A DNA stretch of 57,505 nucleotides, the filler included, from Jimgerdemannia flammicorona (taxonomy: Eukaryota), in the NCBI GenBank assembly GCA_003990765.1. It is 2 parts of 2 records of this genome, joined end to end, with 100 filler letters (N's around TTAATTAATTAA, not from the genome) between each part and the next. Parts side by side here need not be neighbours in the genome. Positions count along the whole stretch, not along the records: positions 1 to 28,711 come from RBNJ01000544.1; 1 more part is not named here. One strand, 5' to 3'. A model generated the notes under the pieces. It was not told where the DNA came from, ran no database searches, and saw only the letters and a list, made by a program, of their open reading frames with translations. Shown here one piece after another: positions 2,100 through 37,890 of the stretch. The position numbers and the translations under genes were made by a program. The first letter of the stretch is position 1, and each line of letters opens with the position of its first letter.

Positions 2100-3365
2100 A
2101 TCTGTGGTCTAATCTTCTCTTTATCTTTTCTGAATTTCTGATTATCTCCTCTAGGTACTATTACTCTAGTACTATTTTATATTATATTCATAATCTCTCC
2201 TGGCCTTGCAAGGGTAGATTAGTAAATACTGGTATTGATCATGATATATTTTAGCTATTATATAATTATTTCAATGATACACTAGACCTAGTTCATTAGC
2301 TCAGCTGTGAGTGCCTTTTATCAAAAGTCAATCTGACTGATATATATCACTACATTCTCATTAATCCTACTGACTGAGAGCTGCTCAGTTTCAAATAGAT
2401 AAGGCAGTTCTACTTTGATTGATTCACCTCTTTCAGTGCCTCATTCTTACCTTTCCTCATCAATGTTTTTATAGAACTCCTCATATAGATAACCCTTCAA
2501 TAGGGCCTTTGATCTCTCATTCACTATATTAATAATTTTCTACTAGTCTCTATCTCTATACTCAAGATTATTAACTGAGAGCTACAATCATTTCTATTAC
2601 TTAGCTATAATCTCAGTTGGTCAATACAAGACTATAAGATAGAGGGACCTATTATATCTCTAGTCTTTCTAAGCATCAAACTTGATTCAGCCACTATAGA
2701 AGTTTGTTTTTCTATTAAGAAGATCAATATAATTATAAAATACCTATGTTAGTAGTCAATATACTCAATATATATGAGATTGTAACTTCAATCTCTAATT
2801 AGTCTATTGGTATTTGTAATTAATATTATCTCTCCTAGCTATCTATTCTTTTGCTGATTTATCTATCTAATAACTGGCAACTCTATCTTCTATATCTTAC
2901 TTATAGCTAACTTTTATACTAATGTATTATAATGGCCTGAGTTTCTCTTATAATAGAATGATATCTCTATTATCTATATAGTCAACTGGTCTCACTCTTC
3001 TGATTCCCAGCTCCGGACTGACACTAGTAGCAATTTTGACTTTAGAGTATATTATAAGAACTCTTGGTTCTCTACTCTCTGACCCCTCAATCTTCTCTTA
3101 TATGACATTCAATTTAAAGAGTTATATATAGTCATCACTACTGCTGTGACTAGTAGTTATTGCTGGTCATTCTATTAAATCTTACTTCATATAAAAAATT
3201 AAGCTATTGTCACTATTATTAATTCTAAAATCTCCCAGAATTCTCTTCATCTTAAGCTACTATACTAGCTTTACTTTCTTATAGTATCTTATATATTTTA
3301 ACTCTTCACAATATATATCTCTATAGCTCATAATAGTATTACCAATACTCTATTCTGCTCTGACC
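2100..3365 (+). pseudogene. Ngaro/DIRS reverse transcriptase + RNase H remnant (approximate limits)
   Basis: Degenerate HYLDDF-like motif at ~2520-2545, KxEGP..L.FLGI.LDS-like motif at ~2636-2690, DIQFKELY at ~3103. Confidence 0.8.
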
Positions 3366-3449
3366 TATCTTATTTTCACTATCTTGCTCCCTATATAAAG
3401 ATGCTCTAAATATAGATTAGTATTATCTATATACTGCACTTTTATCTAT

Positions 3450-4360
3450 TATTACCTTCTTTCTATAGTTTAGTCTAGCAAAATCAATACATTACTTATA
3501 TTTATTAAAATAATACAGTTTTTTTTTAGTTCTGTATTCTCTATAGTGGCTATTATAGATCTGACCATGCCAGTCTCTACAATACTCTCCTCACATCAAG
3601 TTGATATTAATGTACTGAGTATGCTCTCTTGCTTAATATTATTTACAACTTCCTATCATCAAAAAGTATCTCTCAGCTATTTAATCTCTCTATATCAACT
3701 CTGACTTTACTGACCTATTCATTGGTCTTCAACAGCTCCTTTATATGATATATGGTATAAAACACTGGCTTGGGCTGAATCTGTCTCACTCTCAGTTATT
3801 AATTATAATTAACATTCTATATTACCTTCTAACTCTTCTATATTTGTTTAATTTTAATAATCTCAATCTTATCATAGTAATGTCTCTTACATATATTGTC
3901 TGGTAAATTTATATGAGACCTCTCTTTCAATATATCTCATTATATATCTCAATACTATATTATCTTTTAATCTTATATTACAGACTCTATACTTATCATC
4001 TTTATTCTATAAGTATCCAAAATAGATCCTTTTCAATAGAGTTACTCTCTGTTCATTAGCTGAATAGCCTACAATATTCCATATATCATCTCACTCTTAT
4101 ACTTATTATTTCTTACATTTCTCACTCTACTCAGTACCCACCTATTTATATCCTTAGTATACTATCTCTTCTTTCAATCCTACTTTATTCAGTATCTTCA
4201 ATTTTTACTTTCTTAAATTAGTCTTACCTCAACCCTCTTTACTGGTTACAGCTTTCAAATTAGTACTATATCTGATACCACCATAGTAGGTCTCTTTAAC
4301 TATAAGATATAAATACTCAGATAATAGTCTAGCAGGGCTTTCAAAGGATATATATATATA
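3450..4360 (+). pseudogene. Tyrosine recombinase remnant (approximate limits)
   Basis: 4241-4355 translates TGYSFQISTISDTTIVGLFNYKI*ILR**SSRAFKGYI, matching the YR C-terminal pattern GHSFRIGAA...G.....I..LGRW.S.AF..YI after C>T/G>A decay. Confidence 0.75.
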
Positions 4361-4690: not shown

Positions 4691-5360
4691 AGTTTTCTTT
4701 TTATTATATATTTCTTTCAAATATATTTACTGGAAACAATAATTATATTTATGAGTTTTACTTCTTTCACATTAGAGAGTCATATCTTTCATATACAGAT
4801 TATCTTCTTTTATATAAGAGGGTTATAACTTTTTCACACTGTTCAGATATTTTAGCTAGATATTGAATGAGTGAACTTAGTTGAGACTACAGATCAATGA
4901 TTGTAAAAATGTCTTTGGCACTGATGTCTTTAGTATATATATCTTATCTATATTTCCGTTTTGAAGTTGTGATAAAATAATATAATGTTTTAATATATAT
5001 ATATTATAAATATATATGTATTTTCTATTTGGATAATTTATAGTATTAAATACTTTATACTAGTTCTATTTATTATTTTTAGCTCAATACACTACTCTCT
5101 ATACTTTATATATATTTACTACATATATATTTGCTTTTTCTTTCATCTACTACTCTACTCTCTACTTATATATATATAGTTATAGAGTCAGTTTTCTTTT
5201 CACTATATACATATTTCTCCTAAATATATTTACTGAAAACTACAATTATAATTATGAGCTTTATATCTTTATATTAGAGAGTTATATCTTTTGTCTGTAG
5301 GTTATCTTCTTATACATCAGAGGGTTATAATGTATCTGATATTGTAGCTAGACATTGAAT
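4691..5360 (+). repeat. Split direct repeats B1 (~4691-4868) and B2 (~5190-5360) at the Ngaro 3' end
   Basis: Two ~175 bp homologous blocks (agttttcttt...aaatatatttactg...attagagagt.atatcttt...agagggttataa...tagctaga.attgaat) separated by ~320 bp. Confidence 0.7.
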
Positions 5361-6124
5361 TAAAGTTATTTAATTAACTACTATTATATCAAATCTAAGT
5401 CTAAATCTACTTCAACCAACTCTAATTCTACTAACTTTATAACTTTAATCTTATTAGCTTTTCTTACCTTATTTATAAGATCTGTAGAATATATTTTTAT
5501 TATTTTCAATACTATTTTTTTTTATATATTTCCTTATTTATATTATTTATAAGACTTATTATTATGTATAAATATAGTCTATACATCTTCTACTCTTATA
5601 TATAACTATGACTACTATATTATATATATGTATATTTAAGAGTTAATTTTAAGTAATATATAATAGAATATAATTAAAATAAGAATAATGTAACTAAATT
5701 CTAACAAATAGAGATTAATTCTATTATATAAATTATATAGTAAAATTTATAGATAAATTTACTTATAGATATTTTGATATATATAATATATATCTAAAAG
5801 TTATTCTATAAGTATATATTTTAATTATATCTTTATTATTAATATAATATATATATATACTAAGAGAATTTACTTAATTTACTAAATTATTGATATATAT
5901 TTAGTATAATTATAAATATACTTTTTGAGCTTAATTTATAAATTAAGTAATTAGAATTTCAGATATATAAAATTAATATAATAAAGATATTTATATATAA
6001 TAATTATATAGTATCTCTTATACTTTAAAAATGACTATAGAATTTATTTGAAAATTTAAAAGTATAAAGGTGATCATTTATAATACTTAGTATTATTTAA
6101 TATTATAATTTTAAATTTATATAT

Positions 6125-6584
6125 TGTGATGGTATAGCCAGATTCAGAAGAAGAAAATAGGGAACAGACACTTAATCGTACCCAGTCCCAAAATAGTATA
6201 GCCACATAGTTAGCAGTCCTTGATTTCGCCACTTGCTAAATATTTCACAAAGTGCGAGATCGAGCTTCTTGATATAGTATAGTATTTTGCAACTAGTGAA
6301 ATATTTCACAAAGTGTTAAATGACTTATAACCTAGCTACATAACTCATCTCATAGCTAGCAAACTTGTATAAATAACTCAGTATCTTCAAGTGAATAAAT
6401 CTCAGATCGAAATAGTTCAAAATAAAGAGATAGCAAAGGAACTAGTAAGTCTGTGGGCAGATACACTTCGAACTCACCCACCCTTCCCTGCGACTTCAAG
6501 AGACTCTGTGAGAGTCAGAACAGTCAAGTTTTCAAGATACAGAAATCTGACATACTTTCAAGAGTAAGCTTTCACTACATTACA
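6125..6584 (+). repeat. 5' LTR of A1
   Basis: Direct repeat of 12345-12804; TATA-like gtataaata at ~6367 and AATAAA at ~6394. Confidence 0.96.
6223..6321. promoter_or_regulatory. U3 array of four 19-bp palindromes (ATTTCGC-N5-GCGAAAT), putative protein-binding sites
   Basis: Units at 6223, 6242, 6284 and 6303; consensus built from both LTRs; lies just upstream of the TATA-like box. Function is inferred. Confidence 0.65.
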
Positions 6585-6698
6585 ACTTAGTGCCCATTGG
6601 CTGGTGATTCAAGATGAATCCCTCACTTTTAAGCTGAACAATGAACAACTGCCACTACCCAAACAACCATACAAACCAAGCCCCAATACCCAGATAAG

Positions 6699-9600
6699 AT
6701 GGATATGAGATCACCAGTATTCCATGGATATACCTCAGATGAATCAATCATCACCTTCATTGATGATTTCAAGCAGGATGCTACTATAAGGACCCTGACA
6801 GTAGCACAGCAAGTAGCCCTCATGCCCCTCAGCCTACGAGGTCCTGCCAGAGCAGCATTCACAGCCGCAACCCATGCAGAAAATGATACTGATGCTATAC
6901 TGACAGCACAGAAGACCTGGCTCTGAAATACATATTATATAGATGAGATCAAGTAAGCCCTGAAGGATCAGCTCAATACAATATGCCAAGGAATGAGTGA
7001 GGATCCAAACACATTCTATACCAGAATTTGATATCAGATAATCCTTGCAGATTATGCTGCTGCTATCCGAGATCAAGTAGCCGAAGCAACCTTCATGAAA
7101 GGAGTCCATCCAGAAATAGCCATGGCCATCTGCTCATCACCAGTGATTCTGGATCTGCCACAGAAGGTCACCTATGCTCAGTGATACTGGATAGCTAGAC
7201 ATCCACAAGACCATATAATAGAAAGGGTCATGGAAGTCAAAATTGAAGCACCTAAGACAACCAGTGTGATCTCTACCACAATGATCAATTGAAACACACC
7301 TCAGCCAAAAACTACAGAGCAGCAAAAGAACAGTGACCCTATGGAGGAACTTGCCAAAAGGTTTGCCGAAATGACTGCCCACCTGGGAGATGTGGTAAAG
7401 GAAATTCGAGGAAGAGACCACCACCCTGTTCAGAAGTTTGCCACTACCTCAGATAAGAAGAAAGGTAACTGCTACAGCTGTGGAGAAGAAGGCCACTACT
7501 CCTATGAATACATGAGTGAAACCAAGTGCAAGGCTCAACCAAGCAATGCTACATGAAATAAGGAGCAGGCCAATACAATTACCTTTGAAGAAATCAGAGA
7601 ATCCAATGAAGAGGAATGGAAGGCCTATCCTGCTCAGACCACCAAGAAGGATGTTCGCAAAGAACTCTACAAGAGACTGCCAGGAAGACCCAAGAAGAAC
7701 CCAGTGGAAAAGTGGATGGAAACTACCACAGAAAGCCAAGCTGAAGAGATGGACTAAGATATGGAGCTGGAGCAAGCAGTTCAAGATATCATCTGAGAAA
7801 CCACTCTAGCCAGTGAAGGAGAAAAAGAAAAGAAGCTTCGCAAGACCAAGACCTTCAAGTATGATATCTTCAAGGACCTCAGTCAACAAAAGGTCAATGC
7901 AACCTTTGGTCAGCTTACAGAAATCCCAACATTCAGATAGCAAATGAGGTTTGGACTTGCCGAAACAACTAAGGAACAAGGATGGAAGATAACTGAGACC
8001 AATAACATTCAAGAGGACTCAGGAGAAGAAAGTGAGGACAATTGCAAAACCTCTGCTTATGCAACATGCCAAATCAAAGATAGAATCTTTGAAGCCATTA
8101 TTGATATGGGAGCAGGAAGATATCTCCTCAGCAAGAAGGCAGCAGACCACCTAGGTTGGGATGTGGAAGAAGCAACTAAGCTGGTGTTCATCACAGCCAA
8201 TGGTACAAGAGCCATATCTCTGGGAAAGATCCGAGATATTTCTATCAAGATTGGAGGAGCAACTATTCCAGTAGATGTAATTGTAACCAATACCACCAAC
8301 TATGACATCCTCATTGGCAATCAATGGCTTCACAAAGCCAAGGCAGTAATCGATCTCAATGCCCAGAAGATGCAGATCACCTACCGGGAACAGAAGATAC
8401 AAATTCTCATCAATGTCAATAGGGGAGTCCTGCCTGACATGGAGGAAGGGGAGAGCGAGCAAGAGGAAGCTTATATGGTGACTACTCCAAAGAAGAAGAA
8501 CATTGGATGGATAAGTAAAGAAGAATGGTGCAAGAAGATCACAGAAGGTTATGCCCCACAAGGAGTCTGTCCTCATGGGATCAAGATGTACTATATGGAG
8601 CATGTCAATGATTGCTACCAGTGCACTATTGGAATCAAGAAGATCCACCAGGAAAGAAGGCAGAAAGCTCTCAAAAAACAGATCAGGGAAGAAGAAAAGG
8701 AGGAAGATGATGAACCACCAGCCCTCCTGGAGGACAGTGATGATGAAGAAGAAATCAAGGTCAAGATTCAAAAGATCCACCCTGATGCAGTCTTGCCAGA
8801 ATACAAGTCAGAAAATACAGCTAGAATGGACATCACTATAGTAGAAGAGACTGTACTGGAATCCCAGACAATCACCCTACTTGTAACTGGACTGAAGATG
8901 ACCATCCCTAAGGATTATGTTGGGATTCTCAAGACAAGAAGCAGCCTGGCTAGAAGTGAAATCACAATCGAAGGAGGAGTCATCGATTCAGACTCTACTG
9001 GAGAAATTCTACTCATTACTAGGAATCACAATCTTACAATCCTATTTCCAGTCAAGATGAAGGACCGATTGGTACAAATGTTGATCTTTCCAATCCTACA
9101 ACCAAAGATCATAGAAGTTAAGAAGCTGGAGGAAATGAAAAGAGGAAAGAAAGGATTTGGATCCATAGGAAGAGAAGTATTCGCTAGCACCAAGATCACC
9201 AAACTCAAGCATAAGAAGGAGGAAAACACAAGTAAGCACAGCTAAACCATTAGAAATGAATTTCTACTCAAGAAAGAACTCAAGAAAATACTCCACGAAT
9301 TCGAAAATATTCTTGCCACAGATTTCAAGAATATCAAAAGAAAGACCCCACACTACTATCATGAAGTAGATACTGGAAACACTGAACCAATTTATCAGAA
9401 GGCAAGACCTGTCCCACCAGCCTACCAAGAATGGCTCAGAGAAGAAATCAAGCAGATGGAAGAAGCTGGCATCATTAAAGAAGTCAGTAGCCCCTGGTCC
9501 TCACCTGTTGTACTAGTCCCAAAAAAGGGCAGCAAGTCTGGAGAATTTGCACCAAGACTCTGTGTTGACTACAGAAAGCTCAACATGGTTACCAAAAATA

Positions 9601-10669
9601 ATTGCCAACCACTGCCCCTCATCCATGACATCTTCATAACACTGGGAGATAAAGTACAGTACTACAGTACTTTGGACTTATACTCAGGATTCCACCAAAT
9701 CGGACTCACAGATATGACAAGTGAAAAGTCAGCTTTCATCACTCCAGATGGAACCTACATCTATCTATAAATGCCATTTGGAATATATAATGCACCAGCA
9801 AAATCTTCTACTATGATATGGGAAGATGGATAATGGTCTATATTGACAATGTAATCATCTACAGCCAGACATCAGAAAAACACCTGCAGCACATCTGGCA
9901 GATAATGAAAAGACTGAGAAAGCATGGCCTATACATTAAGCCCAAAAAATGCAAATTCACAGAAATCGAGATCTCCTATCCTGGCCACATCATCAACCAA
10001 GATGGAACACACACGGACCCCCTCAAGATACAAGCAGTGGCAGCATACCCAAGACCCACCACTGTTATAGAAGCCCAAGCCTTCATGGGACTTGCCTCCT
10101 ATTATTGCAGATTTATTAGAGGATTTTCTAATATTGCAGGACCAATCTATGAACTTAATAAGAAGGATACCAAGTTCCAGTGGACTGGCAGACAACAAAA
10201 AGCATTTGATGAACTCAAGGTCAGACTGACCCAGGCACCCATCCTCAGAAGACCTGACTGGACTCAAGAATTCATCCTACAGACTGATGCAAGTGCACAA
10301 GGACTAGGAGCAGTTCTAGCTCAAAAGAAAGATAAAGTAGAGTATGTTATCGTATACCTCAGCTGCAGAACCCAAGGAGCTGAAAAAGAATATGAATCCT
10401 ATAAGTTGGAACGCCTCACAGTTATCTGGGCCATAGAAAAGTTCCACTACTACTTGGCTGGAAGACACTTCACCATCCAAATGGATCACTCAGCTCTCAC
10501 CTGGCTACTGACAACCAGACAACCCAAAGGAATCTATACCAGATAGATAATGAAGTTGCAAGCTTATGATGTAACCATTGTACACCGCTCTGGAAGAACC
10601 AATGCCAATGCAGATGCCCTCTCACGGACACCCCGAACTACCTCCAACCAATAAATCAATCATGAATAA
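6699..10669 (+). pseudogene. A1 polyprotein: gag (CCHC knuckle) - AT hook - aspartic protease - CxH..CxxC motif - dUTPase - RT - RNase H
   Basis: ORF fragments 6699, 7341, 7944 and 9456 share one frame; motifs CYSCGEEGHY, IIDMGAG, YDILIGNQWL, RLCVDYRKLN, VYIDNVII, LQTDAS, ADALSR. One small deletion near 9800. Confidence 0.93.
8754..9175 (+). pseudogene. dUTPase domain between protease and RT (A1)
   Basis: KIHPDAVLP, ARMDI, TGL, RSSLA, GGVIDSDSTGEI, DRLVQ, RGKKGFGS represent the five trimeric dUTPase motifs. Confidence 0.93.
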
Positions 10670-11856
10670 GGAGCTCTACTATGGAATTATCACATACCTG
10701 GGACAGTGAAAGATGCCCCAACATCTGGAAGAATAGATACAAATGATTATCAACAGAACATGGAAACAATTCGAAACTGATGGAGAAATACTGAAGAAAG
10801 GAAAACTACTAGTTATACCAGAACACAATAAGGAGCAAGTGATGAAATCAGTATACGAACTTGGTCATCTAGGAGGAACAAATACATATGACAAGGCAAG
10901 AAGAACAATATGGTGGCCAGGGATGGAGGAAGATATCAGACAATTCATCAAGACCTGCGACAAATGCCAGAAACAGAAACAAGACCAACGAAATCGAGCT
11001 CCAGGATCAGCATACATAGAACCAGTACCATTCACCCACATTGCAATAGATGTAATTGGCCCTCTATCCTTAACTTTGACTGGCAACTGATACATCATTG
11101 TCATTGTAGACCTTTTTACAAAATGGATAGAAGCAGGACCCCCTATGGAAGCCAATGTACAGTCAATCGCTAATTTCTTCTACAAGGAAATTATCTGCCA
11201 GTTCAAGACCCCAACACAAGTAACTACAGATAGAGGAACAGAATTTATGAACCAGCTCTTTGAGGTTCTCTACAAGAAGTACAAGATCCAGCACATTCAG
11301 ACCACAGCCTATCACCCCTAAGGAAATAGACAAGCAGAAAAGACTAACAAGACCCTCAAGAATGTTATTGCCAAGATCTGTGATAACTATGAAAACTGAG
11401 ATTACTATCTGCCAATAGCATTATCTGCTCTCCAGGATATCTAATCACAAAGTACCCACTTTACCTCTTAAGAAATGCTGTTTAGAGAAGAATGTTCTCA
11501 GGAAACCCTATCATCCAATAGAGATGCTGTATGGAAACATGTAGACATGGAAATATGGAGACTACACCAAATCAGGAAGAAGGCTGAGGATAACATAACC
11601 AAGGTGCAGATACTACAATGGAGGAATGTGGAAAAGACCCACAAACTCTTGGAGATTATCAAGATAGGAGACAAAGTTCTAGTATATTGGAATATAGTAG
11701 AAGCTTCATGGTCACGAAGACTGGAGTCCAAGTGGGAAGGACCTTACCTGGTACAAAATATAAAAGGGACCACCTTTTGGCTACAAAAACCCTCAGGCAC
11801 AAAAAATCCCCACCACCATTCACTGAAACTAACTCAAGAAATATCATGGCCAGTAA
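10662..11856 (+). pseudogene. A1 integrase as a separate ORF (HHCC zinc finger, DDE core, GPY/F)
   Basis: MNKELYYGII...GHLG...WWPGM...CDKCQ...IAIDVIGP...TDRGTEF...KWEGPY; ATG overlaps the RNase H stop (CATGAATAA). Confidence 0.9.
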
Positions 11857-12307
11857 CAAAAGTACTGCAATGGCACTCAAGATCACTAGCACTGCCCAAA
11901 GAGCCATCAAGAGACAATGGCATACCACTGAGCCTCTGACTATAGAGGAGTCTTATGATAGTATCCAAAGTATTGTACAGACTCATCTCTCTCAAATCTC
12001 ATACTTCAAGATCTATCAGCATTGAAACGAATTTCAAGAGTACTTCAAACTTGGCCAAGTACTCAACCAAGACCCAGAAATGACCAAAGAAAATTGGATC
12101 ACAGAATGCCAGCTCTCCTATTCCCAGATCACCATTGCTAAGAGAATCCACAAGCTATTCCAAGAGGATGAACCAGCACTAGCCCACCTGTAAGGAGTAA
12201 CTCCCTCAGACTTCAACCAAGTCAGATGACACTATTGGGAAACAGTAATGCAACAAATCGCACAATACAAGACCATACAGACCATTGAAGCTTGGGAGTT
12301 TAAATAG
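11846..12307 (+). pseudogene. A1 accessory ORF3, unknown protein (~153 aa, interrupted by TGA/TAA stops)
   Basis: Colinear with the nearly intact ORF 45007-45468 of copy 2. Confidence 0.8.
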
Positions 12308-12344
12308 ATACTTCAAGGATGAGATCATCTATTCAGGAGAAAGT

Positions 12345-12804
12345 TGTGATGGTATAGCCAGATTTGGAAGAAGGAAATAGGGAACAGACACTTGATCGCA
12401 CCCAGTCCCAAAGTAGTATAGCTACATAGTTAGCAGTCCTCGATTTCACCACTTGCTAAATATTTCGCAAAGTGCAAGATCAAGCTTCTCGATATAGTAT
12501 AGCATTTCGCAACTGGCAAAATATTTTGCAAAGTGTTAAATGACTCATAACCTAGCTATATAACTCATCTTATAGCTAGCAAACTTGTATAAATAACCCA
12601 GTATCTTCAAGTGAATAAACCTTAGATCGAAATAGTTCAAAGCAAAGAGATAGCAAAGGAACTAGTAAGTCTGTGGACAGATATACTTCAAACTCACCCA
12701 CCCTCCTCTGCAACTTCAAGAGACTCTGTGAGAGTCAGAACAGTCAAGTTTTCAAGATACAGAAATCCGACATACTTTCAAGAGTAGGCTTCTGCTATGT
12801 TACA
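12345..12804 (+). repeat. 3' LTR of A1
   Basis: Direct repeat of 6125-6584, preceded by purine tract aggagaaag. Confidence 0.96.
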
Positions 12805-13251
12805 ATATATTATATATATACTATACTTTACTAAGCTAAATTTATTAAGAAGATTTATTATATAGAATACTTAAATATTGTAATCTTTCTTAATAAAGAC
12901 TAGAATAGATCTCTTAGATATATTTATATTAATAACTAGAACTATATTTTTATATCTATATCTATATATATTATTAGACTAATCTTAGCTTATTATAATA
13001 TAGTATATATTTTTATATATTTATTTATAAATACTCAGTACTAATATATCTCTAATTTATATAGTTAAAGAGAAAGTAATTATTCAATAATATAAATTAT
13101 ATACTTTTAATAATTATTAATTAAAATAAATATATTAAATTAAATTAAATTTAACTTAATTTGATTTAATTAGATTTAATTTAAATTAAGGTTTAATTTA
13201 AAGTTTAATTTGTATCTATTCTTTTAAAATTTAATAACTTTACTAAACTAT

Positions 13252-16200
13252 TATTAGGATGGCAACTTGATATATCAATATGTAATTGGTGATTTCATCA
13301 GTCTTATATCATCTATCAGTAATAGTGAATATATATCCTATATAAGTTTAATAAAAATGCCCCTCTTTCCAACAAAGGTTATGAGCTCTGCTAGCACTAA
13401 GTGGATATAGCAAAAATAAATAAATAAATAAATACATATACCTTATAAATATATACTATATAATATATACTAAAAATGGCAGATAGTTAATTTAGCAATG
13501 AAAGCAATATAGATACACCAACCATGAGTATTCTGGCAATAAGAACAGTCTCTATTGTAAGTATAAACATAGCCAAAAGGTCCATTCTGATCTTTAATGA
13601 GAAAGATTATGCCATCTAAGTGTTCCATATGATAAATCTTCTTGACAAATGTGACTTGGCAGAGTATATGAAGCCACAAGTACAGATTTAAGACTACAAC
13701 CCTGCAAATGATCACTGAGCATTATGTGAGATTATATAATTTATAAATAAAGCTCATAATACATGCAGATATGACCAATGAAGTATGGAAAGTTCTATAC
13801 AATCATTATGTATAAGTATCTACATTGAATAGATTCTATCTGAAATCTCAGCTATTCAATCTTTAAATAAAGCCAAAGGAGAATATTTATAAATATATCA
13901 GTTATATTGATAATCTAGTAAATTAAGTGAATTCTCTCAGTATATCTATGGATTGTATTGGTAATAAAGATAAGGTTATAGCACTCATAAGGAGACTTCT
14001 GGATATGTATAATGTTATCATTACAGCCATATATGAGAGTAGCCCTCTCATGGACTATATCCATATGATAATGAGTCTCATAAATGAGAAAATGCACCAA
14101 GGAAATAACAGTGATGATGATGAAAGAGCATTCTATGGATTCTATAGATGCAGTATCAAATAAGGTCAAAGTACAGTCAACAATATGACCAATGATCTCA
14201 AACTCAAAATTAATAATGCAATAGCTAACCAACTAAGTATAATGACTACTATGAATACTGCAGTAAGTATAGACATAAGAAGTACTAATGTTATCACTGG
14301 AAAAATGAAAATAAGTGTGAAAACTAGTATTGGAAATATAGAAATAGTGAAAAGAACTATCATAGAAGTGGCAGAAGTCAATATGAAAATACAAATACCA
14401 CCAAAACTAATAGAAGTGATAATTTATTTTTTATACAAACCAGTCCTTCTACATCTATAAGGCCTGGCAAGGATGATGATTTTGGATCTAAAAGTCCTGC
14501 CAAATCAACTGCCAATTCTGACAGTGTCAGTTCTGCTAGTTCTACTAGTACAGAATCTAGTGTTAAATCTACTAACTCATCATCTGCAAATACCAGTCAG
14601 TAAAATACTTTTGGACTAATGAAAAGTAGTGATAACATCAGTACTACCAGCAGCATAGATAGAAAAACCACCAACTATATATATATCTACTAAATATGCC
14701 AATATAGCCAATGATAACTATATCTGGTTAATGAATTCTGAAGTCATGTAATATATGATGTCATATAGAAAATAGTTCTCCATGTATCAATTATTTGAAC
14801 ACTCTATACTCATTAAGTTGGGAGATAACAATGTCATCTATGCTCAAGAAATGGGAAATTTCAGTACATATCTCTATAAAAATGTCATTAAGCCTACTAC
14901 TACTCTTGCAGATATACTATATACTTCAGAGATAGGAAAGAATCTCTTCTCTATAGACAAAATGAAGACTCATGGTAATAAAGATATATATATATATTCA
15001 AAAGACACAATAGTATATAATTCACATAACAATAAGAGATTAATAATAGTCTTGAAATATGGTAATCTTTATACAATCAATAGTATACTGAGTAGTATGA
15101 AAGTAACTATATATATGACAACTATGTCTAATGTGTCCAATATATGGCATCAATACTTAGGACATATCAGCAAGATAAGACTCAAATGAATGTTAAGAAG
15201 TGGATCCATCAGCAGATTACTGGAAATATATCCATATGACAGTTTTTGCAAGAATTGTATGGTAAATAAAATATTCTAGCAATCATTCAAAGAATGATTA
15301 AAGAATATATCCAAGACCCTTAACCTCATGTATATAGATATATATAGGCCAATGCATATACTATCATATTTCAGCAAAAGATATTTTCTCACATTCATTA
15401 ATAATCCTATGTAAAAAGTATATATATATCTTCTATCAGTAAAGAGTAAAGTCTTAGATAAATTCAAAGAATTCAAAGTGATCACTAAAAATGAAACTAG
15501 ATATAGAATACATGCTATATGATCAGATAATAGATGCAAATATATCAATCATATATTCAAGCAATTTCTGATAAAATATAGCATAATCTATCAAATTATG
15601 GCTCTCTATACACCTCAGCAGAATGGTATAGCTGAGTAATTTAACTGTATGGTCATCAAAATAGTACAGATAATAATCGATACTGCCAGATTAGGATATT
15701 CCTATTAGACCATAGCTATCAACACAGCAGTATATATCTTCAATAGATATATATCTTGATTGCTAAGTAAGGAAGCTGCCAACAACAATAAGCATAAGAA
15801 TGATATCTCACTTTTGAAGAATTATAAAGTAAAATGAAGCCAGATATATTCCATTTATATATATTTGAATGTGACATATATGTCCTTGATAAAAGCAATA
15901 CTATCTAGGATAAATTCAAACTCAAGATAAGTAAGTATGTGTTTCTTGAATATTCTGGCAAAGTATATCAGCTATGGGATCTATACAAGTAGCATATAGT
16001 TATCTTGTATAATATATAGTTCAGAGAAAAAGAAAATAGCTTAGAACCTTATATAGAAGTAGTAGTTGAGACCTCTATATCTATATATATCTATATCCCA
16101 GCTAGTATAAATGTAGCAATCAGTGCAACCATTATCCACCTCTCCAGCAGTTAATCAAAATTATTTTTAACTACTATATATACCTGAGCCTGAATCTAGA

Positions 16201-18507: not shown

Positions 18508-21022
18508 ATTATATTTAAATTTAATAATCTTTAGCTTATTAAATATATCTTATTAAAATAAATCTAATATAATAAAAATATTAAATATAGTTAAGTTATT
18601 ATATTTTAAATTTAAAATAGAAATTAAAAAATAAATTTGATATTAATTCAATTTAAAAAGATATTAATTTAAATTAAATCAAATTTAATAAAATCTCAGT
18701 TTAATTTGAACTTAATTTTATTTATTTAGAAATACTAATTATAATTACTAATAATTTAAAACTAATGAAATAGTTAAAATTATATATCCATATAAAGTTA
18801 ATATCTAAATATAATAAATTTATAATAGTTAACATAAAGATGAGAAATATAAAGATATATTAATAATTGGAGTTTTTTAATTTTTTTAGTTAATAAATAT
18901 TAAGTTCTTATATAATAAATTAATAACTTAAAAAATATATCTTTTTAATTATTTTTAATTTTCAAGTTAGTTATAAAATATACTTAATAATAATAACTGA
19001 AGATATTATTACTAAACTACTAAAATAAGTAAAAATAAAATATAAAATAATATATCTTAATATTTTATTATTAGAATACTCTTATTTTACTAAGTATTTC
19101 TAATTATTTTAAGTTATTTATATAAGTTTAAAGTATAAAGTTTAAGCTATTAATTTTAATATTAAGTTAAATTTAAACTATTTATTATATTATATATAAA
19201 TTTAAATATATTTTATTAATTAAAATTATTATAATTAAAAATATAAGTATTAAAATAGATAGTCATTATATATTATTTATACTTTTAAGATAAATATATA
19301 TAATTACTGTGATAAACCAGAATGTATCATCTAAATTATAATTTAGTCAGATAATATAAATATATAGCATCATAACCAGATATAGCAACTATTGCTGTGG
19401 AAAACTATATAAATAGCCAGACTACTAGATAAGATATACCTATGCTGAACATCTGTGCTAAACTAGCATACTTGTGCTAAACCAGCACACCTATGCCAAA
19501 CCAGTATACTTGCTATAGATAGCAATCTATAATTAGCAATATAGTAATCAGATAGTAATTACAACTATATAAAATATCCTAGAAATAAGAGTGAATAAAC
19601 CTCTGTCTGAATTGAAGTACAAACTAAAGAACTAAAGATTGATCATTGGTCTCCTTATTCTTACTCTTGTCTACTTTTCAATATAAAGCCTTAGTTTACT
19701 TACCAGATAAGCCTGAAGATTTGCTGTCAAAGTTCAAAAAAGATCTTCACTGCCTTTTGAAGAGAAATCTACTGCTTATAGAATAAGCCATTATATTTTT
19801 AGTTCACTTGCCGGATAAGCCTGAAGAAGTCTGAGTTATCCACATTTCTGGAGAGCCTTAAGAAATCTTGCTACAAAGCCAGTCTGTTGATGCAACTTCA
19901 CAGTGAACTTATTCATGCAAATGAAGCCATTCTTGATGTAACTTTGCCCAAAAGCCCACCATCCTAGTTATTTCCCAGAAGTCTGCTGATTTAGAAAGAG
20001 TCTGCAATATCTGAGTTATTTATCTGTTTCCAGTAAACCCAATTACTACCAGTATAATTTCCAGTGAGCCTGATCTGCACCATCCTCTATTCCCAGTAAG
20101 CCACCAATTCAGAAGAATTTATACTAAATTGATTTATCTACCAAATTGCCAGATTGTCCTGCATAAGGAACCCACTGCACTACACAGAGATCATCACACT
20201 ATACAAAGAGATCTTTATGCAGAAATCACATTTTTTGGAGAATGCCCATACTACACAAATTGCTGCTACATCCAGAGAACCATCCCAATAGGAAAATTGA
20301 TATATAAATCACTTGCAGATATTCAGTTTTAACTATTATACCACTAAACACCAAGAATATTTTATTGCTTTTAACAAAGTAACTGGGGACTCAAGTAAAA
20401 TATATCAACTCCCAATCTTGTAATTTGTCTCTATTGAGTCAGATATGTTATATTTGGAGGCTCAACTCGGAAGATCTCAAAATTGATGTGACTTTTTAGC
20501 TTATAAGAACCTATAGTCAGACTGAATACATTTAATACAACTCCAATCTCTGTCACCACAGGAGAACTAGTCATCACCAGCATTTAGACAGGAAGAGAAG
20601 TAATCACCTCAAGACTTACCAATTACATAGTATCAGAAGGATCTCAATCAGAACTAGAAGCTAGTATAACCCAAAATCTCCAATCAGATCAATCAGACAA
20701 TACAGGTGGCCCTGTTGGAAATTTTGAAGAACTTTCCCAAGAACTAGAAGATCTTATTACACAAGTCCTAAATTCTGTAGTTAGACATCCCACAGTAGCC
20801 CCACCAATCTTACTCATTAAATCTTTACTATCAGTCCTTGCAGAATTGGAAATAGCTTCTTCAAGAATACCTAGACTCATTCCACTTCATCCAAGGTCCA
20901 GAAAACCATCCTTAAGATACCCAAGCACCCACATTTCTATTGACAATTTAGAAAGTAAATCAGAGTCAGAATTCGAATCAGAACCCAGACCAGAACCAGA
21001 ATCAGAAGGAAGTGATGATAAA

Positions 21023-24000: not shown

Positions 24001-26395
24001 AGATGCCACCAACTTCATGGAAGCCCTAGACCCTACAGAAAGAAGAGAAATCAACTATCTCCAAGACCCCTCTACTGGAGCCAGATGGCCACACCTCAAC
24101 CTCAGAGCCTGGAGGCTCTCTGCTAGTAGAGCTTTAGCTCAAGGATCGCCTGAACTCAGCAAAGATATTGCCCAGTATGCCCTGCTACATCCTAAGGCCA
24201 AACCCCCAACCAAAGCTCACCTGGAAGATATATGATATGATCTTCACAGTCTGGAGGATGAATCCATCAAGTCTGGAAAACATTCATGATTAGAACTGGA
24301 CTAGCCATACAGCCACCCCAAGGAACTTACATCCAACTGACCTCAAGGTCTAGACTTGCCAGATAAGGAATAACTATAGAAGAAGGAATCATCGATTCAG
24401 AATATACAAGTAAAATCAAGGTCATCTTACACAACAGTAGTACAGAATATTACTGAATCATTAGAGAACAGAAGATTGCCCAAGCAGTCTTCATGAATGT
24501 CAAGAACATACAATTATAAGAAGTTCCCAAACTGATTGAAGGAACAAGACAAGCCAAAGTATTTGGAAGTTCAGATAAGAAGGAAGTACATCTCCTTCAA
24601 CTCAACCATCTCAAGAGGAATGTTCTCCAGCAAGTATACTACCAACTAGTCAAACTGCACAAGAATCTCATTCTAGAGCCTAGAGAGCAAACCACCTTTA
24701 ATATCTTTATATCACCTGACTTCATAAATCTCTTCTTCAAACTCAATAAAGATATCCCATACCTGGATATAGAAGAATATACATTTCTCAATAAGATGAA
24801 TCCAGTATACTCCCAAGCAACCAACCAAAGTTGGGAGACTATCATCTTGCCAAAAGGAACTATCATAGGACATCTGGTGCCTTTTCTCAACTGAACTTAT
24901 AGAGAAGTTTATAAACTAAACTTATCAGGAAATGGCAAAAGGTTCTAGAAGAAAGAAAAGGCCCCTCTGCAATCCAGGAGACAGTGAAGTCTTCTACTAA
25001 CATTGAAGAAGAATTGATACCTCAGTAATGACAACAACTAGTAGAACTCTTCAACAAATATTAAGATATCTTCACTACTGATTATAGCAACCTACTATAT
25101 AACCCATCATATCACTACAGCATATATATAGGAAATGTAATGCCCATCTAATAGAAACTCTATAGAATACCCCATTACCTAAAGACATTCAAAAAGGAGT
25201 ACATTCAAGAACTCTTAGACAATAGAGTCATCTGACCCTCAACTAGCCCCTGGGCCAGTCCTATACTTATTGTACCAAGGAAAAGAGGATAGAGACTCTA
25301 CATTGATTACAGAAAACTCAATTCAGTCACTGAAAAGGATGCCTATCCTTTGCCAAGAATCAATGACCTCTTGGATCAGTTACAAGATACTAGATACTTC
25401 AGTAGTATGGACCCTTTTATAGAATTCTATGAGATTTTCATAAATCTAAAAGACATTCAGAAGATGGCCTTTCTTGCCCTAGGAAAACTGTTTAAATACC
25501 TCTGAATACCCTTTGGACTTTGCAATACACCTCCCACCTTCCAGAAAATGATGAATTTGGTCTATGCCCCTCTGATCTACCACTGTCTGATTGTATACAT
25601 AGATGATTCCAATATCTATTCAGCAAATTTCAGAGAACAACTGCACTATCTAAAAGAATTCTTCAAGCTCACCCACCAGAACCACCTGAGACTCAATGCT
25701 AAGAAATACTACTTTGGGAAACAGAAACTTGAATTCCTTAGATTCATAGTTTTGAATGAAGGAATCCATACAGACCCAAAGAAAACTGAGAAGATCAACA
25801 ATTAGTCAGTACCCAATACCCCACCAAAAAACCTATCATTTCTGATGTTAGTGTCCTACTACAGAAGGTTTATTAAGAACTTTGCCCAAATCACTGCCTC
25901 AATTCGGATTCTTCTCAAGAAATAAGTGCCATACAAATAGATAGAATCACAAGAGAAAGCCTTCAAAGAACTCAAGAACTGCATGACCACAGCACTAATC
26001 TTGTGCACCCCAATCTACAGAAGCCATTCATCTTATACATAGATGCTTCCAAAGATAGCCTAGGAGCAGTTCTAGCCTAAGAAGGATCTAATCAATAATA
26101 CCATATGATAGCTTATATAAACTAAGCTACCAATCAGCAGCAGATGAACTATGGTAACACCAAACTAGAATGTCTTGCAGTTATATAGATGGTCACTTTG
26201 TTTAAGTATTACCTTATTGGAAAAAGGTTCACTCTAATCACAGACCATGCAGTACTCAAATGGCTATTCAACTATAAGGAACCTACTGAAATCCTAGCCT
26301 ACTGGATCCTTATCCTTTAGGATTACAAAATCACCATTATTCACAAAGTAGAAAAAGCTCACAACAATATTGATGTACTTTCCCACCAGCTCTAA
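21023..26395 (+). pseudogene. C polyprotein gag-PR-long Cys/acidic insert-dUTPase-RT-RNase H
   Basis: EDPREFLDGIE capsid-like start; ILIDIGVAICI protease; RT and RNase H motifs; ends HNNIDVLSHQL*. Confidence 0.85.
24185..24575 (+). pseudogene. dUTPase domain of family C
   Basis: LHPKAKPPTKAH..YDL..RTGLAIQPPQGTYIQLTSRS.LA..GIIDSEYTSKIKVILHN..KIAQ..RQAKVFGSS. Confidence 0.88.
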
Positions 26396-27473: not shown

Positions 27474-27971
27474 CAACTACCTTCAGACTCTTATCCTCAG
27501 TTTATTTCAATCACTGCCAGTTCCCCTACCCCAATTCTAAGAAGTCAATGGAAATATCCTCTAGAAAATTCAGATTCATTAAGAGAATCTTGTTCTGATC
27601 AGACAATGTTACAGGTCCATCAACTTCAAGCCTATTATACAATCAGAGAATAATTGCAGAACCTTTCAGCCCCAGAACAAATATACATCAGAAATACTAC
27701 AGGACTATCAAGGAGAGATATCACTACTGCAGACAGGCTCCACACCCTTTATAAACAAAACCCTGTAGCTCTGATACAAGCACAATTCTCCTGGTGTGAT
27801 GTATAAGAAATGAACCTAGACATCTACCTAAGCATTATTAATGCTGTTGAAATTCTATTCCCAGAAGAAGAAGAAGAACCCCTGGAATAGAGTAACCATG
27901 GTATAGATGATGAGGATGATAGAATGAGTATTGATGCAGAAGTTGCTTATTCATACTGGGATGATGACTAA
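27457..27971 (+). pseudogene. C accessory ORF3, homologue of A ORF3 with an acidic tail
   Basis: QLQAYYTIRE.L...LSRRDITTADRLHTLYKQNPVAL aligns by eye with A ORF3 EFQEYFKLGQVL...LSHSQITIAKRIHKLFREDQVAI; one frameshift near 27600. Confidence 0.7.
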
Positions 27972-28139
27972 AGGACAGTCTGAGGACAGACCATCCTTTA
28001 GTGGGGGCTGATGTGACAAACCAAAATGTACCACCCAAATTATAACTTAGTCAGATAATATGAACACATATATAGCATCATAACCAGACAAAGCAACTAT
28101 TCCTACAGAAAACTGTATAAATAGCCAGACTACCAGATA

Positions 28140-28208
28140 AGGTACACTTGTGCTGAACCAGCACATCTATGCTGAACTAGCACACCTGTACTGAACCAGC
28201 ACACTTGT
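28140..28208. repeat. 19-bp tandem palindromic repeats in the C LTR U3 (also ~19431-19512)
   Basis: Unit cagcacacctgtgctgaac containing CAGCACA-cc-TGTGCTG, ~3.6 copies. Confidence 0.85.
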
Positions 28209-28711
28209 CATAGATAGCAATCTATAATTAGCAATATAGTAACCAGATAGCAACCACAACTATATAAAATACCCCAGAGATAAGAGTGAATAAACCTCAG
28301 TCTGAATTGAAGTACAAACCAAAGAAGCCTCTAAAGATTGAACATTGGTCTCCTTATTCCCACTCTGGTCCACTTTCTGATACAAAGCCTTGGTTTGCTT
28401 GCCAGATAAGCCTGAAGATTTGCTGCCAAAGTTCAAGGAAGAACTTCACTGCCTTTTGAAGAGAAATCTGCCACTTAAGGAATAAGCCATTATGTTTTTG
28501 ATTTGCTTGCCAGATAAGCCTAAAGAAGTCCGAGTTAACCTTGCCACAAAGCCAGTCTGTTGACGCAACTCCGTAGTGAACTTGTTCATGCAAACAAAGC
28601 CAGTCTTGATGTAACTTTGCCCAAGAAGCCTGCCAATTCAGGAAGAGTCCGCAATATCCGAGTTATTCGTCCATTCCCAGTGAACCCAATTGTCTTTTTT
28701 TTTTTTTTTTT

Positions 28712-28811
28712 NNNNNNNNNNNNNNNNNNNNNNNNNNNNNNNNNNNNNNNNNNNNTTAATTAATTAANNNNNNNNNNNNNNNNNNNNNNNNNNNNNNNNN
28801 NNNNNNNNNNN
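28712..28811. other. Assembly gap with artificial six-frame-stop linker TTAATTAATTAA (28756-28767)
   Basis: 100 nt of N enclosing the linker. Confidence 0.97.
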
Positions 28812-29283
28812 TCCTATCTGTGACGGCCATCTCCCCTCCCATCCCGACATCACCCGAAAAGCAGTCACCTACGCCAGAACCGCGCTCGCCGGGAAGCTCG
28901 CCAAAGCCAGAGGGCCCCACCACAGGCACCGAGGACCTACAGGTAACCTACACTGAGCACTTGACGCCCAAGGTCGGCCGACTCCCTACGTAGCCCGAGA
29001 CATACCGAGACAGCACCTTGTTGACGACGGCAAAAGGAAGAAGGCGCCGCACCAAAACGGATATACTCCAGACGCAGCCGAAGACACCAGAAACCACGAA
29101 AAAGTGGAGAAGACACCGATCGGACACCGATAAAGGGGCAACTCATCACCATTGCCCTCCTCCCACCATGCCCATGCAGGCACAGCAAACCAACCCGAGG
29201 TAGAGGGGGTAATAATAGGGGAAAGGGGACTCGGAAGGTAGCCTACCAAACCTTGTGACTGGTAAGGTAGCGGAGAAAGGAGC
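28812..29283 (-). mobile_element. SINE-like element, 5' half (CpG-rich, young copy)
   Basis: Near-identical to 31820-32293 and to the reverse complement of 56390-56860. Confidence 0.9.
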
Positions 29284-36997: not shown

Positions 36998-36999
36998 CA

Positions 37000-37739: not shown

Positions 37740-37890
37740 AAAATAATACTATAGTAAAAGTAGATAATTATAGCTCAACTCAATAGTATATAGTGTGACA
37801 GTACAGCCAAATTCAGAAGAAGGAAATAGGGAATAGACACTTGATCGCACCCATTCCAAAGTAGTATAGTATTATAGTTAGCAGTCCTCA

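Follow-up and report, generated by a model that had tools for sequence, protein, structure and literature searches.

The stretch of DNA analysed here (the window) comprises 57,505 nucleotides of Jimgerdemannia flammicorona (GCA_003990765.1), two parts of the assembly joined by filler. It contains a Ty3/gypsy retrotransposon, A1, in which an additional reading frame, ORF3, lies between integrase and the 3' LTR, and a sister copy, A2. The features of the two that matter most are these:

6124-12805, plus strand: element A1, 6.7 kb, recognised by its LTR pair and Pfam domains
11846-12307, plus strand: ORF3 of A1, ATG to TAG, 153 codons, 170-235 bits in an HMM scan
11854-11856, plus strand: probable authentic integrase stop of A1, in the frame ending LKKYHGQ(stop)
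12334-12343, plus strand: polypurine tract (PPT) of A1, AGGAGAAAG-type, directly 5' of the 3' LTR
12344-12805, plus strand: 3' LTR of A1, whose U3 part extends to about 12563 and falls within a divergent ORF3+U3 block
45007-45468, plus strand: ORF3 of the sister copy A2, open for 144 codons, 181-243 bits in the HMM scan

The domains that Pfam recognises in A1, upstream of ORF3, are gag (zf-CCHC), PR, dUTPase, RT, RNase H and IN (H2C2, rve). Its LTRs (6124-6585 and 12344-12805) are 91.1% identical, its termini are TGTGAT...TTACA, and the 3' LTR bears TATAAATA near 12590 and AATAAA near 12613. The initial annotation had drawn attention to 11846-12307, and this is exactly an ATG-to-TAG frame in A1, with the ATG at 11846 and the stop codon at 12305-12307, 37 nt short of the 3' LTR. 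The frame is interrupted in A1 by three stops (codons 60, 116 and 128). In A2, an element that occupies 37787-45965 within a 4-bp target duplication (ATAG), there is a single premature stop (45439-45441). The peptide quoted there for A (...KLFREDQVAIDHLRGVT) is that of A2, at 45007-45468; A1 reads ...KLFQEDEPALAHL(stop)GVT.

The end of integrase in A1 can be placed only indirectly, because the integrase frame of A1 is itself broken. Homology around LKKY to the integrase end of a distant family, E, puts the stop where the ATG of ORF3 lies 8 nt upstream of it, in the +1 frame, so that the ATG overlaps the end of integrase. An integrase that ends with the stop-to-stop frame 11472-11939 (94-nt overlap, -1 frame) was rejected, as comparison with family E identifies that frame as one shifted by decay.

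Is this a gene or an accident of open sequence? The databases hold eight proteins related to ORF3 of A2, intact, with 62-76% identity (E 6.6e-67 to 1.4e-26). A profile search over 1.84 billion representatives uncovered family E, which consists of 11 clusters and is linked to family A in profile-profile alignment by hhalign (probability 97.3%, E 1.7e-11, 108 columns). The same search also brought up a 604-aa repeat protein (P0014, E 6.3e-5), judged spurious as its match is confined to profile positions 28-54. A metagenome scan with the ORF3 alignment led to two loci, while scans of viral contigs found no relatives and protein-atlas searches no usable match. Contig L002 carries a near-full-length element of family E, with gag, PR-dUTPase-RT-RH, IN (5094-6452) and then ORF3 (6397-6896), which again overlaps the end of IN in the +1 frame. 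ORF3 is thus kept across its families: it is present in both A copies of the window, in 8 clusters for A and in 11 for E.

The pattern of substitution is that of a protein. Between the family E loci L001 and L002, dN/dS is 0.07-0.11 in the frame of ORF3, and the two remaining frames give 0.86 and 1.5; between A1 and A2, pN/pS is 0.18 against 1.10 and 1.17; the values are rough, with dS near saturation and many transitions in both A copies. They show purifying selection on ORF3 in two families that share only about 40% identity in pol. ORF3 has been kept intact in related copies, and therefore the elements probably need it.

It may be objected that ORF3 is no separate protein, that ribosomes shift by +1 at the integrase stop or before it and so add ORF3 to the C-terminus of Pol. 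Ty elements use +1 frameshifting, ORF3 lies +1 to integrase in A as well as in E, and in a third element, C, the homologous stretch stands in the integrase frame after one stop. What happens around the ATG in family E makes this very unlikely. Upstream of the ATG, the integrase frame is identical at 37 of 43 codons and the ORF3 frame at 21 of 43; over the first 19 codons from the ATG, ORF3 is identical at 14 and the overlapping integrase, whose stop comes some 55 nt downstream of the ATG, at 9. Conservation switches from one frame to the other exactly at the ATG, and therefore ORF3 is read from its own start codon. In the alignment, every full-length protein of A and E starts at that ATG, and among 73 candidates in longer proteins none is a fused form. 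ORF3, judged from its sequence, is a genuine protein-coding third gene. Its location on the gag-pol strand, between the end of integrase and the PPT or 3' LTR (A1, C and L002), makes it a sense additional ORF of the class called aORF-3S.

The initial annotation went further, with the claim that three Ty3/gypsy lineages in this window share related stretches. Beyond A there are the following:

27474-27971, plus strand: ORF3 homologue of element C, with three stops; hhalign and HMM match at 27618-27773
36092-36760, minus strand: ORF3 homologue D1, 222 codons from its methionine with six internal stops, ending ...TYWDNDH(stop)
32677-33288, minus strand: D2, a second decayed D copy, 15 stops in the 204 codons read, with a weak HMM match at 32902-33150
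51274-51954, plus strand: D3, a third decayed D copy, downstream of a chromodomain-bearing pol remnant
34985-36998, minus strand: LTR-like terminal unit of 2 kb that carries D1, its ends common to other copies
39238-40712, minus strand: a 1475-bp insertion in A2, related to the D unit and flanked by a 5-bp target duplication (GCAGG)

Element C is bounded by LTRs at 19308-20044 and 28012-28691. A single stop separates the IN remnant from the ORF3 homologue, which continues in that frame to the ending ...SYWDDD(stop); the LTR begins 40 nt further on, at 28012. The D copy does lie within an LTR-like unit, as had been surmised. The unit has the same ends in all copies, 5' T[G/A]TAAG... and 3' ...CTCTTATA, and the 1475-bp relative has both of them, with a remnant of an integrase C-terminal (GPY/F-like) module in place of ORF3. 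A different parsing, in which a 0.75-kb block X is the D LTR and block Z is internal, was rejected: the junctions show the supposed Z/X boundary to be merely a site of later insertions. Upstream of D3 lie RT (47848-48576), IN (49298-49837) and a chromodomain (PF00385, 28.8 bits, E 1.2e-6, about 50429-50590), and this pol is an unproven candidate for the partner of D ORF3.

The members of C and D seen in the window are all broken, and pairwise comparison of such sequences is only suggestive. BLASTP gives 43% identity over 23 aa for A2 with C (E 1e-4), 32% over 60 aa for A2 with D1 (E 1e-3), and no similarity between C and D1 (E 0.9). One might then hold that C and D resemble A by chance or through composition, and that a real gene is shared only by families A and E. 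The decay of every copy, the 7-15 stops per roughly 205 codons in D, its strong AT bias and the lack of any C-D1 match would all suit that view. A profile HMM offers a better measure. Built from database relatives of A and E, with no C or D sequence in it, it was scanned over six frames of the window, and after the two A copies the best matches were C (9.9 bits) and D1 (9.4 bits). They stand some 12 bits clear of the next match (-2.6 bits); the best reversed-sequence match scores -4.5, and none of 60 block-shuffled windows that preserve composition reaches 9.4 bits, the maximum being 0.8. C also lies directly between an integrase remnant and the end of an LTR, D follows an integrase-like remnant within its terminal unit, and both end in a tryptophan-acidic motif. 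I consider coincidence highly improbable.

Profile-profile comparison is less even. For C, hhalign against the A+E profile returns a probability of 79.8% (E 1.5e-5, 53 columns); for D it returns 19.3% with a single copy and 3.2% with a three-copy alignment, and so lends D no support, a point that belongs on the side of chance. The homology of D is argued instead from the HMM scan, from the full-length, collinear match of D1 (profile positions 1-146, beginning at its methionine) and from its C-terminal ending. The case for relationship is strong for A and C, through scan, shuffles and hhalign, and moderate for D.

Do these lineages share ORF3 by exchange, as was also suggested? A, C and E are sister families built on a common plan: PR-dUTPase-RT-RH-IN, with an end of the GPY/F type and without a chromodomain. 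The dUTPase (PF00692) is found at E 1.9e-20 in A1 and 1.2e-20 in A2, by tblastn at 24286-24570 in C, and as a dUTPase-like stretch in the pol of L002; none is detectable in the D3 pol remnant. Pfam finds no Chromo match in the ORFs of A1, A2 or C, and the integrase of L002 ends without one. The pol proteins of A, C and E are 31-47% identical, and the ranking by ORF3 similarity is the ranking by pol, with A and E closest (ORF3 25% identical against 38-40% for pol). Descent from an ancestor that already bore ORF3 would be enough to explain such parallel divergence, and because of it ancient exchange between the lineages is not shown.

At close range the idea of exchange fares better. Between A1 and A2, identity in the block 11814-12563, which takes in ORF3, the PPT and U3, is 78-80% and transversions number 8-26 per 250 nt, against 83-95% and 0-6 outside it, and pS is 0.62 in ORF3 against 0.18 in the adjoining IN segment. 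ORF3+U3 behaves as a recombinant block within family A. Strand transfer between molecules could have produced such a block as a routine side effect, with no functional coupling. Both this recombination and the D copy, in a 2-kb terminal unit adjoining a chromodomain-bearing pol, fit a modular movement of ORF3. Probably ORF3 has for the most part been passed on together with pol, the ORF3+U3 block recombining now and then.

The protein is 144-169 aa long. AlphaFold's best models for families A and E are helical, with pLDDT 74.0 (pTM 0.68) and 76.2 (pTM 0.72), only the best of five being confident in each case (the others reach 52-60 for A and 53-70 for E). The soluble product is predicted to consist of an all-helical domain of about 140 aa, followed by a disordered acidic and aromatic tail. 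In family E the tail (residues 144-167) falls within a segment of pLDDT<50; of its 25-27 residues 10-11 are D/E and none is K/R, and F, I, L and W are present as well; in composition, and in composition only, this is what is seen in acidic activation domains. The tail of family A is short, 13 residues of which 3-4 are acidic. Tryptophan flanked by acidic residues occurs in the endings of all four lineages (EAWEFE, DEWDL, SYWDDD, TYWDNDH).

Several of the initial annotation's remarks on this protein hold up: it does occupy the position of env with neither signal peptide nor transmembrane segment (over 19 residues the Kyte-Doolittle mean reaches at most 0.19-0.74, so a hydrophobic segment is absent), it is predicted to be the soluble helical protein surmised, and on the question of an existing DUF, no Pfam family or DUF matches it. 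In Pfam, four ORF3 translations and 18 members of the alignment A3 gave best E-values of 0.01-0.3, all below the cut-offs, and no family at E<=1, env included, rises beyond that sub-threshold noise. As regards gag or nucleocapsid, a CCHC motif is absent, neither Pfam nor the PDB sequences give a match, no capsid chain is among the fold matches listed for the ORF3 models, and the ORF3 profile finds nothing in the gag regions of the window.

The hope that structure would disclose a relative was disappointed, for no fold match stands out. A sequence profile search of the PDB gave a best E of 0.37. Foldseek gave 0.5 for model A against the PDB and 0.71 for model E against BFVD, with no match at or below 0.001 in either, and a wide search with VIA-align gave best Z-scores of 4.5 (model A) and 3.2 (model E), below the noise that the tool states for helical proteins. 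Model A aligned with ParB-type chains, namely SopB (Z 4.3, rmsd 3.5, 86 residues aligned), KorB (Z 4.0), Spo0J (Z 3.9) and P1 ParB (Z 3.2), all within that noise. The lead to a ParB/KorB/SopB-type helix-turn-helix was dropped: model E gave only VirB, at Z 2.6, and there was no Pfam match. With a pI of 5.95-7.9 in six proteins, the helical domain is close to neutral and lends no support to RNA binding, which the initial annotation had suggested beside a putative transactivator or anti-silencing role; nor was any pointer to DNA binding found.

Which known systems come closest? Sense additional ORFs between pol and the 3' LTR are described as aORF-3S, with the env-like ORFs of Athila and Bagy2 as examples (PMC7264820). 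As that source portrays them, ORF3 shares their position and orientation, its presence in most copies of a family, and the lack of a cellular homologue and of an assigned function (PMC7264820). The plant examples it describes are env-like by their transmembrane segments and lie far downstream; ORF3, in contrast, has no such segment, is only about 150-225 aa long and overlaps the integrase stop (PMC7264820). The bdelloid rotifer elements Vesta, Juno and TelKA have a dUTPase between PR and RT and non-envelope ORF3s, types of which have been proposed to be common to different retroelements (PMC5408684). By the account given there, they resemble the present elements in being Ty3/gypsy-like, in the dUTPase, in a GPY/F-type integrase end with no chromodomain and in an ORF3 that is not an envelope (PMC5408684). 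The rotifer ORF3s listed in that account are a paramyxovirus-type fusion protein, small TM proteins, a GDSL esterase and a DEDDy exonuclease, none of them small and helical with an acidic tail (PMC5408684), and Pfam finds no fusion-protein, esterase or exonuclease domain of the rotifer type in our ORF3. Rice Retrosat2 has ORF0, an ORF inside its long LTR (PMC3485330). In lying inside an LTR, ORF0 may be compared with the D copy in its 2-kb LTR-like terminal unit; ORF3 of A, C and E is internal and in A and C ends 37-40 nt before the LTR. Literature word searches, which are blind to unnamed families and whose scope was outside subscription journals and Repbase-type libraries, found no description of the ORF3 protein.

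A further parallel is of a different kind. Complex retroviruses have regulatory genes at their 3' end that overlap or abut U3, such as Tas/Bel1 of foamy viruses and Tax of HTLV. By analogy, ORF3 may be likened to these: it is small, non-structural, 5' of the 3' LTR, inherited in linkage with U3, and has a tail like that of an activation domain. It differs from Tas/Bel1 and Tax in having no sequence or fold match to viral proteins (best Foldseek E 0.71 in BFVD and at least 0.5 in the PDB), and from complex retroviruses in that its host is no vertebrate virus system and its activator role is putative.

I propose that ORF3 is a conserved third gene, read from its own ATG, that acts as a regulatory adaptor, a reading I hold to be somewhat better than even. 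Its RNA might be a spliced or internally started sub-genomic RNA, or translation might re-initiate at the overlapping integrase stop; the tail would recruit a host factor. Among sequencing runs, none of RNA was listed for this sequence, and two runs of DNA or unstated type contain only 5-9% of its words. If the tail serves as an activation domain, the helical domain may attach to U3, either directly or through a host factor bound there. The best single guess, which I rate below even, is that ORF3 activates transcription from the LTR of its own element; this would fit its 3' position and its co-inheritance with U3.

That co-inheritance is just what would not be predicted by another function, that of an accessory to the particle or pre-integration complex. 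Here the helical domain would bind Gag or integrase, the tryptophan-acidic motif would recruit a host trafficking or chromatin factor, and ORF3 would replace the missing chromodomain by helping in nuclear entry or target choice. There is something to be said for it. ORF3 always comes directly after the integrase C-terminal module, in the D unit too; Pfam scans find no chromodomain in A, C and E and find one in the pol beside D3; and the short ending kept in four lineages resembles a docking motif, motifs of the tryptophan-acidic type being binders of host factors. Yet the motif is short and would serve equally well as part of an activation domain, and I take the accessory role to be unlikely.

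Alternatively, ORF3 might block the host's silencing of the element (by RNAi, DNA methylation or repeat-induced mutation). Copies in the window bear heavy damage of the transition type (each 250 nt of pol has 12-36 transitions and only 0-6 transversions), and D copies have the many stops given above; the host therefore attacks or mutates its repeats. Accessory genes that evolve faster than pol are typical of conflict with the host, and ORF3 is the faster of the two between A and E. However, the dN/dS and pN/pS of 0.07-0.18 mark purifying, not diversifying, selection, and no similarity to any known suppressor came from the Pfam, PDB or fold searches, which leaves counter-defence quite unlikely.

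Additional ORFs of LTR retrotransposons are known, almost none has been assigned a function, and attention has gone mostly to those that are env-like. As an accessory gene, ORF3 is compact, with a soluble product, and bears clear marks of selection; its architecture has two parts, its place overlapping the integrase stop is fixed, and its inheritance is linked to the promoter half of the LTR. It therefore offers a tractable case for learning which functions a retrotransposon requires in addition to gag and pol. With it comes a protein family that today's domain libraries miss, and therefore its copies are now annotated as hypothetical protein or not at all. In its boldest form, which is rather doubtful, the proposal is that a lineage of LTR retrotransposons outside the vertebrates encodes its own activator, made from a sub-genomic message, co-evolving and recombining with U3, and that in D the gene has moved into the LTR. 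If that is true, a regulatory circuit in the style of complex retroviruses would exist in a Ty3/gypsy element.

The window is crowded with nested LTR retrotransposons, and its G+C content is 40-44% in the better-preserved elements against a background of 21-30%. The Ty3/gypsy element A1 and its sister copy A2 share 87.2% identity across 5.3 kb by self-comparison, and each carries a third open reading frame, ORF3. Two further loci, C and D, had been flagged as carrying something similar.

Elements and ORF3 stretches in the window
6124-12805: element A1; LTRs of 462 bp, 91.1% identical by self-comparison
37787-45965: element A2; LTRs 93.9% identical; target duplication of 4 bp, ATAG
19308-20044 and 28012-28691: the LTRs of element C, 77.5% identical; more decayed than A1
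11846-12307, plus strand: ORF3 of A1, ATG to TAG, 153 codons with three internal stops
45007-45468, plus strand: ORF3 of A2, same frame, 144 codons open
27474-27971, plus strand: C stretch, after an integrase remnant, ending 40 nt before the 3' LTR of C
36092-36760, minus strand: D stretch, with two further copies in the window

The initial annotation was right about the locus 11846-12307, which holds an ATG-to-TAG frame, but the peptide quoted for it is that of A2. A Pfam scan of 124 stop-to-stop frames of at least 75 aa found in A1 zf-CCHC, aspartyl protease, dUTPase (E 1.9e-20), RVT_1, RNase H, Integrase_H2C2 and rve. The more decayed element C keeps RT, a remnant of rve and a dUTPase-like stretch. 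The dUTPase lies between protease and RT in A1 (8790-9160), A2 (41938-42240), C (24286-24570) and a metagenome contig, L002 (about 3330-3620). The AT-rich stretch that separates A1 from C contains a Ty1/copia-type remnant (14776-15186; Pol_BBD, E 1e-7). Two runs of 44 N (28712-28755 and 28768-28811) come shortly after the 3' LTR of C, and the order of blocks beyond them is uncertain.

The observation that first drew attention to ORF3 is confirmed. The family is real and unnamed, with relatives in databases, selection specific to its frame and a corresponding place in L002. Searching 5.8 billion clustered proteins with the ORF3 of A2 turned up eight relatives (62-76% identity, 83-153 aa), all of them annotated "hypothetical" or unnamed. 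The profile of these relatives picked out five proteins at E<=1e-3 among 1.84 billion representatives, including a distant one, P0015 (165 aa, E 3.9e-4), whose own family of 11 clusters I call family E. Compared by hhalign, the profiles of family A (the relatives of A1 and A2 ORF3) and family E match at a probability of 97.3% (E 1.7e-11, 108 columns, 25% identity). L002, 7.9 kb long, has a family E ORF3 in element context, the order being gag, one in-frame stop, PR-dUTPase-RT-RH, integrase (5094-6452) and ORF3 (6397-6896, +1 frame), and its pol shares with that of A1 38-39% identity in RT/RH and 40% in IN. The gag and pol of L002 lie in one frame, with the single stop at 1102-1104 representing read-through expression or one mutation. 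Between two family E DNA copies, dN/dS by the Nei-Gojobori method is 0.07-0.11 in the ORF3 frame versus 0.86 and 1.5 in the two alternative frames, and between A1 and A2 pN/pS is 0.18 versus 1.10 and 1.17; with dS near saturation the ratios are approximate, yet the frames differ clearly from one another.

Homology with family E places the integrase end of family A at ...LKKYHGQ(stop), the stop being 11854-11856, and so the ATG of ORF3, in the +1 frame, lies 8 nt upstream of that stop. The integrase of family E extends about 55 nt beyond the ATG. One might then imagine that ORF3 is an extension of Pol, joined to it by a frameshift. The sequences favour a separate protein instead, because conservation switches at the ATG: upstream of it two family E copies are identical at 37/43 positions in the integrase frame and 21/43 in the ORF3 frame, while over the first 19 codons past it the figures are 9/19 and 14/19. 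Moreover, an aligned methionine starts all full-length A and E proteins, and a fused longer protein was found in none of 73 candidates. An extension of Pol I consider very improbable. Ribosomes might reach the ATG of a separate ORF3 by way of a spliced or internal transcript, or by re-initiation at the overlapping stop. At its other end, the stop of A1 ORF3 is 37 nt from the 3' LTR, and a short polypurine tract stands just before that LTR.

The protein has no match in Pfam, to a DUF or any other family, nor to any sequence in the PDB. The AlphaFold2 models made with family alignments are all-helical, with pLDDT 74.0 and pTM 0.68 for A and pLDDT 76.2 and pTM 0.72 for E (the other four models of each run were poorer), and neither Foldseek (E>=0.5 in PDB, E>=0.71 in BFVD) nor VIA-align (best Z 4.5 and 3.2) found a significant match to the fold. 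In the family E model, residues 1-140 are structured and 144-167 disordered. The pI of the helical domain is close to neutral (5.95-7.9). Of the 25-27 residues in the family E tail, 10-11 are acidic and none is basic, and F, I, L and W also occur there. A hydrophobic segment is absent from ORF3 proteins, which, with the helical models, bears out the idea of a soluble helical protein lacking a transmembrane segment. ORF3 is neither an envelope protein nor a recognisable nucleic-acid binder.

How far the family reaches is a matter of C and D, which the initial annotation had grouped with A. Pairwise BLASTP supports their relatedness weakly. A six-frame scan of the window (stops as X) with an HMM made solely from 18 A and E proteins gave 181 and 170 bits for the A copies, 9.9 bits for C (27618-27773) and 9.4 bits for the D copy D1 (36329-36760; profile positions 1-146, beginning at the D methionine). 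The next match stood at -2.6 bits, the best on reversed frames at -4.5, and 60 shuffled versions, made by permuting residues inside 150-aa blocks, gave at most 0.8 bits. D1 still reaches 5.5 bits with just the family E profile, to which the window contributed nothing. Profile-profile comparison by hhalign upholds C (probability 79.8%) and gives D only 19.3% and 3.2%. Homology gains support beyond these scores from the C-terminal endings (A ...EAWEFE, E ...DEWDL/V, C ...SYWDDD, D ...TYWDNDH), where all four lineages finish, in frame with the core match, on an acidic stretch and then a tryptophan with acidic neighbours. Judging from these sequences, I take C as homologous to the ORF3 of A and E, and D as probably so.

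The D ORF3 sits within a 2-kb LTR-like terminal unit whose copies share a 5' end, T[G/A]TAAG..., and a 3' end, ...CTCTTATA, while their upstream flanks differ.

Features related to the D unit
39238-40712: 1475-bp relative of the unit, in the gag region of A2; TG...TA ends; target duplication of 5 bp, GCAGG
47848-50590, plus strand: decayed chromovirus-type pol immediately upstream of the D3 unit (RT 47848-48576; IN core 49298-49837; chromodomain about 50429-50590)

The 1475-bp relative shares both ends with the D unit and has an integrase C-terminal remnant in place of ORF3; it looks like a solo LTR with the end of pol inside U3. Its 5' half is a GPY/F-like remnant in two frames, and its 3' half is the 0.75-kb block X of the D unit. 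A purine run precedes D3, and the chromodomain upstream is PF00385 (28.8 bits, E 1.2e-6). The earlier description of D as an LTR ORF is plausible. D may be a chromovirus whose LTR took in a segment with the integrase end and ORF3, pol and unit being linked by adjacency only. Decay is heavy in all D copies, at 7-15 stops per roughly 205 codons, and several stops of one copy are sense codons in a sister copy. A 1.19-kb repeat (31098-32287, 53504-54693 and 56392-57505) is inserted inside the D2 unit and terminates in a poly(A) run where it meets block X (31100-31140), and a 468-bp sub-repeat of it occurs also at 28813-29280.

Elements A, C and E have one architecture, with pol 31-47% identical, and the order of ORF3 similarity is the order of pol: A and E are clearly closest, C and D distant from both. 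Co-divergence of ORF3 and pol would predict just this order, and on such similarities deep exchange is not required. The notion of a module traded among retrotransposons is not borne out at the deep level, where pol and ORF3 rank alike across A, C and E. Modular behaviour does show in two places, in the D unit described above and in the comparison of A1 with A2. Their pol regions (A1 7564-11813, A2 40712-44970) are 83-95% identical, and the differences are overwhelmingly transitions (12-36 per 250 nt, versus 0-6 transversions). Over 11814-12563 (ORF3, PPT and U3) identity is 78-80%, with 8, 16 and 26 transversions per 250 nt, and in R-U5 it is back to 90%. Synonymous divergence is 0.62 in ORF3, against 0.18 in the integrase segment just before it. 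The ORF3+U3 blocks of the two copies thus diverged earlier than their pol and form a recombinant module. Breakpoints are indicated near the IN/ORF3 junction and near the U3/R border. Inter-molecular first-strand transfer is established retroviral biology, and the pattern of this block is as such transfer would be expected to leave it.

The excess of transitions between A copies is consistent with mutation of repeats in the host by cytosine deamination or a repeat-induced type of process; the D copies, which are full of stops, have shifted towards AT much further than A. Around the TATA box the LTRs of A (12578-12620) and E (L002 7628-7672) are identical over 19 nt, AAACTTGTATAAATAACCC, and 15-20 nt further on comes GTGAATAAA, in elements whose pol is only about 40% identical. 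A GTAAGT in the U5 of A1, at about 12665, could be a splice donor.

The results show the product of ORF3 to be a selected, separately started, soluble protein of two parts, whose gene lies at the 3' end in linkage with U3. I propose, as a candidate function, that it may be a regulatory adaptor. Perhaps it transactivates the LTR of its own element, the best guess but a tentative one; that it serves as an adaptor in the particle or the integration complex is rather unlikely, and a role in countering silencing is quite doubtful. By position ORF3 is like the additional ORFs of plants that lie in sense orientation from the end of pol to the 3' LTR, reviewed in passages of PMC7264820, and by element type like the varied ORF3s of dUTPase-bearing rotifer elements in passages of PMC5408684. 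It lacks the features of an envelope protein and corresponds to no ORF3 type of the rotifers. Passages of PMC2864245 concern dUTPase-bearing fungal gypsy elements; a figure legend there names an "additional ORF of unknown function", which those passages of text do not describe further. Word searches of the literature found no published description of the ORF3 family. The family is unnamed, and it falls within the known class of additional ORFs.
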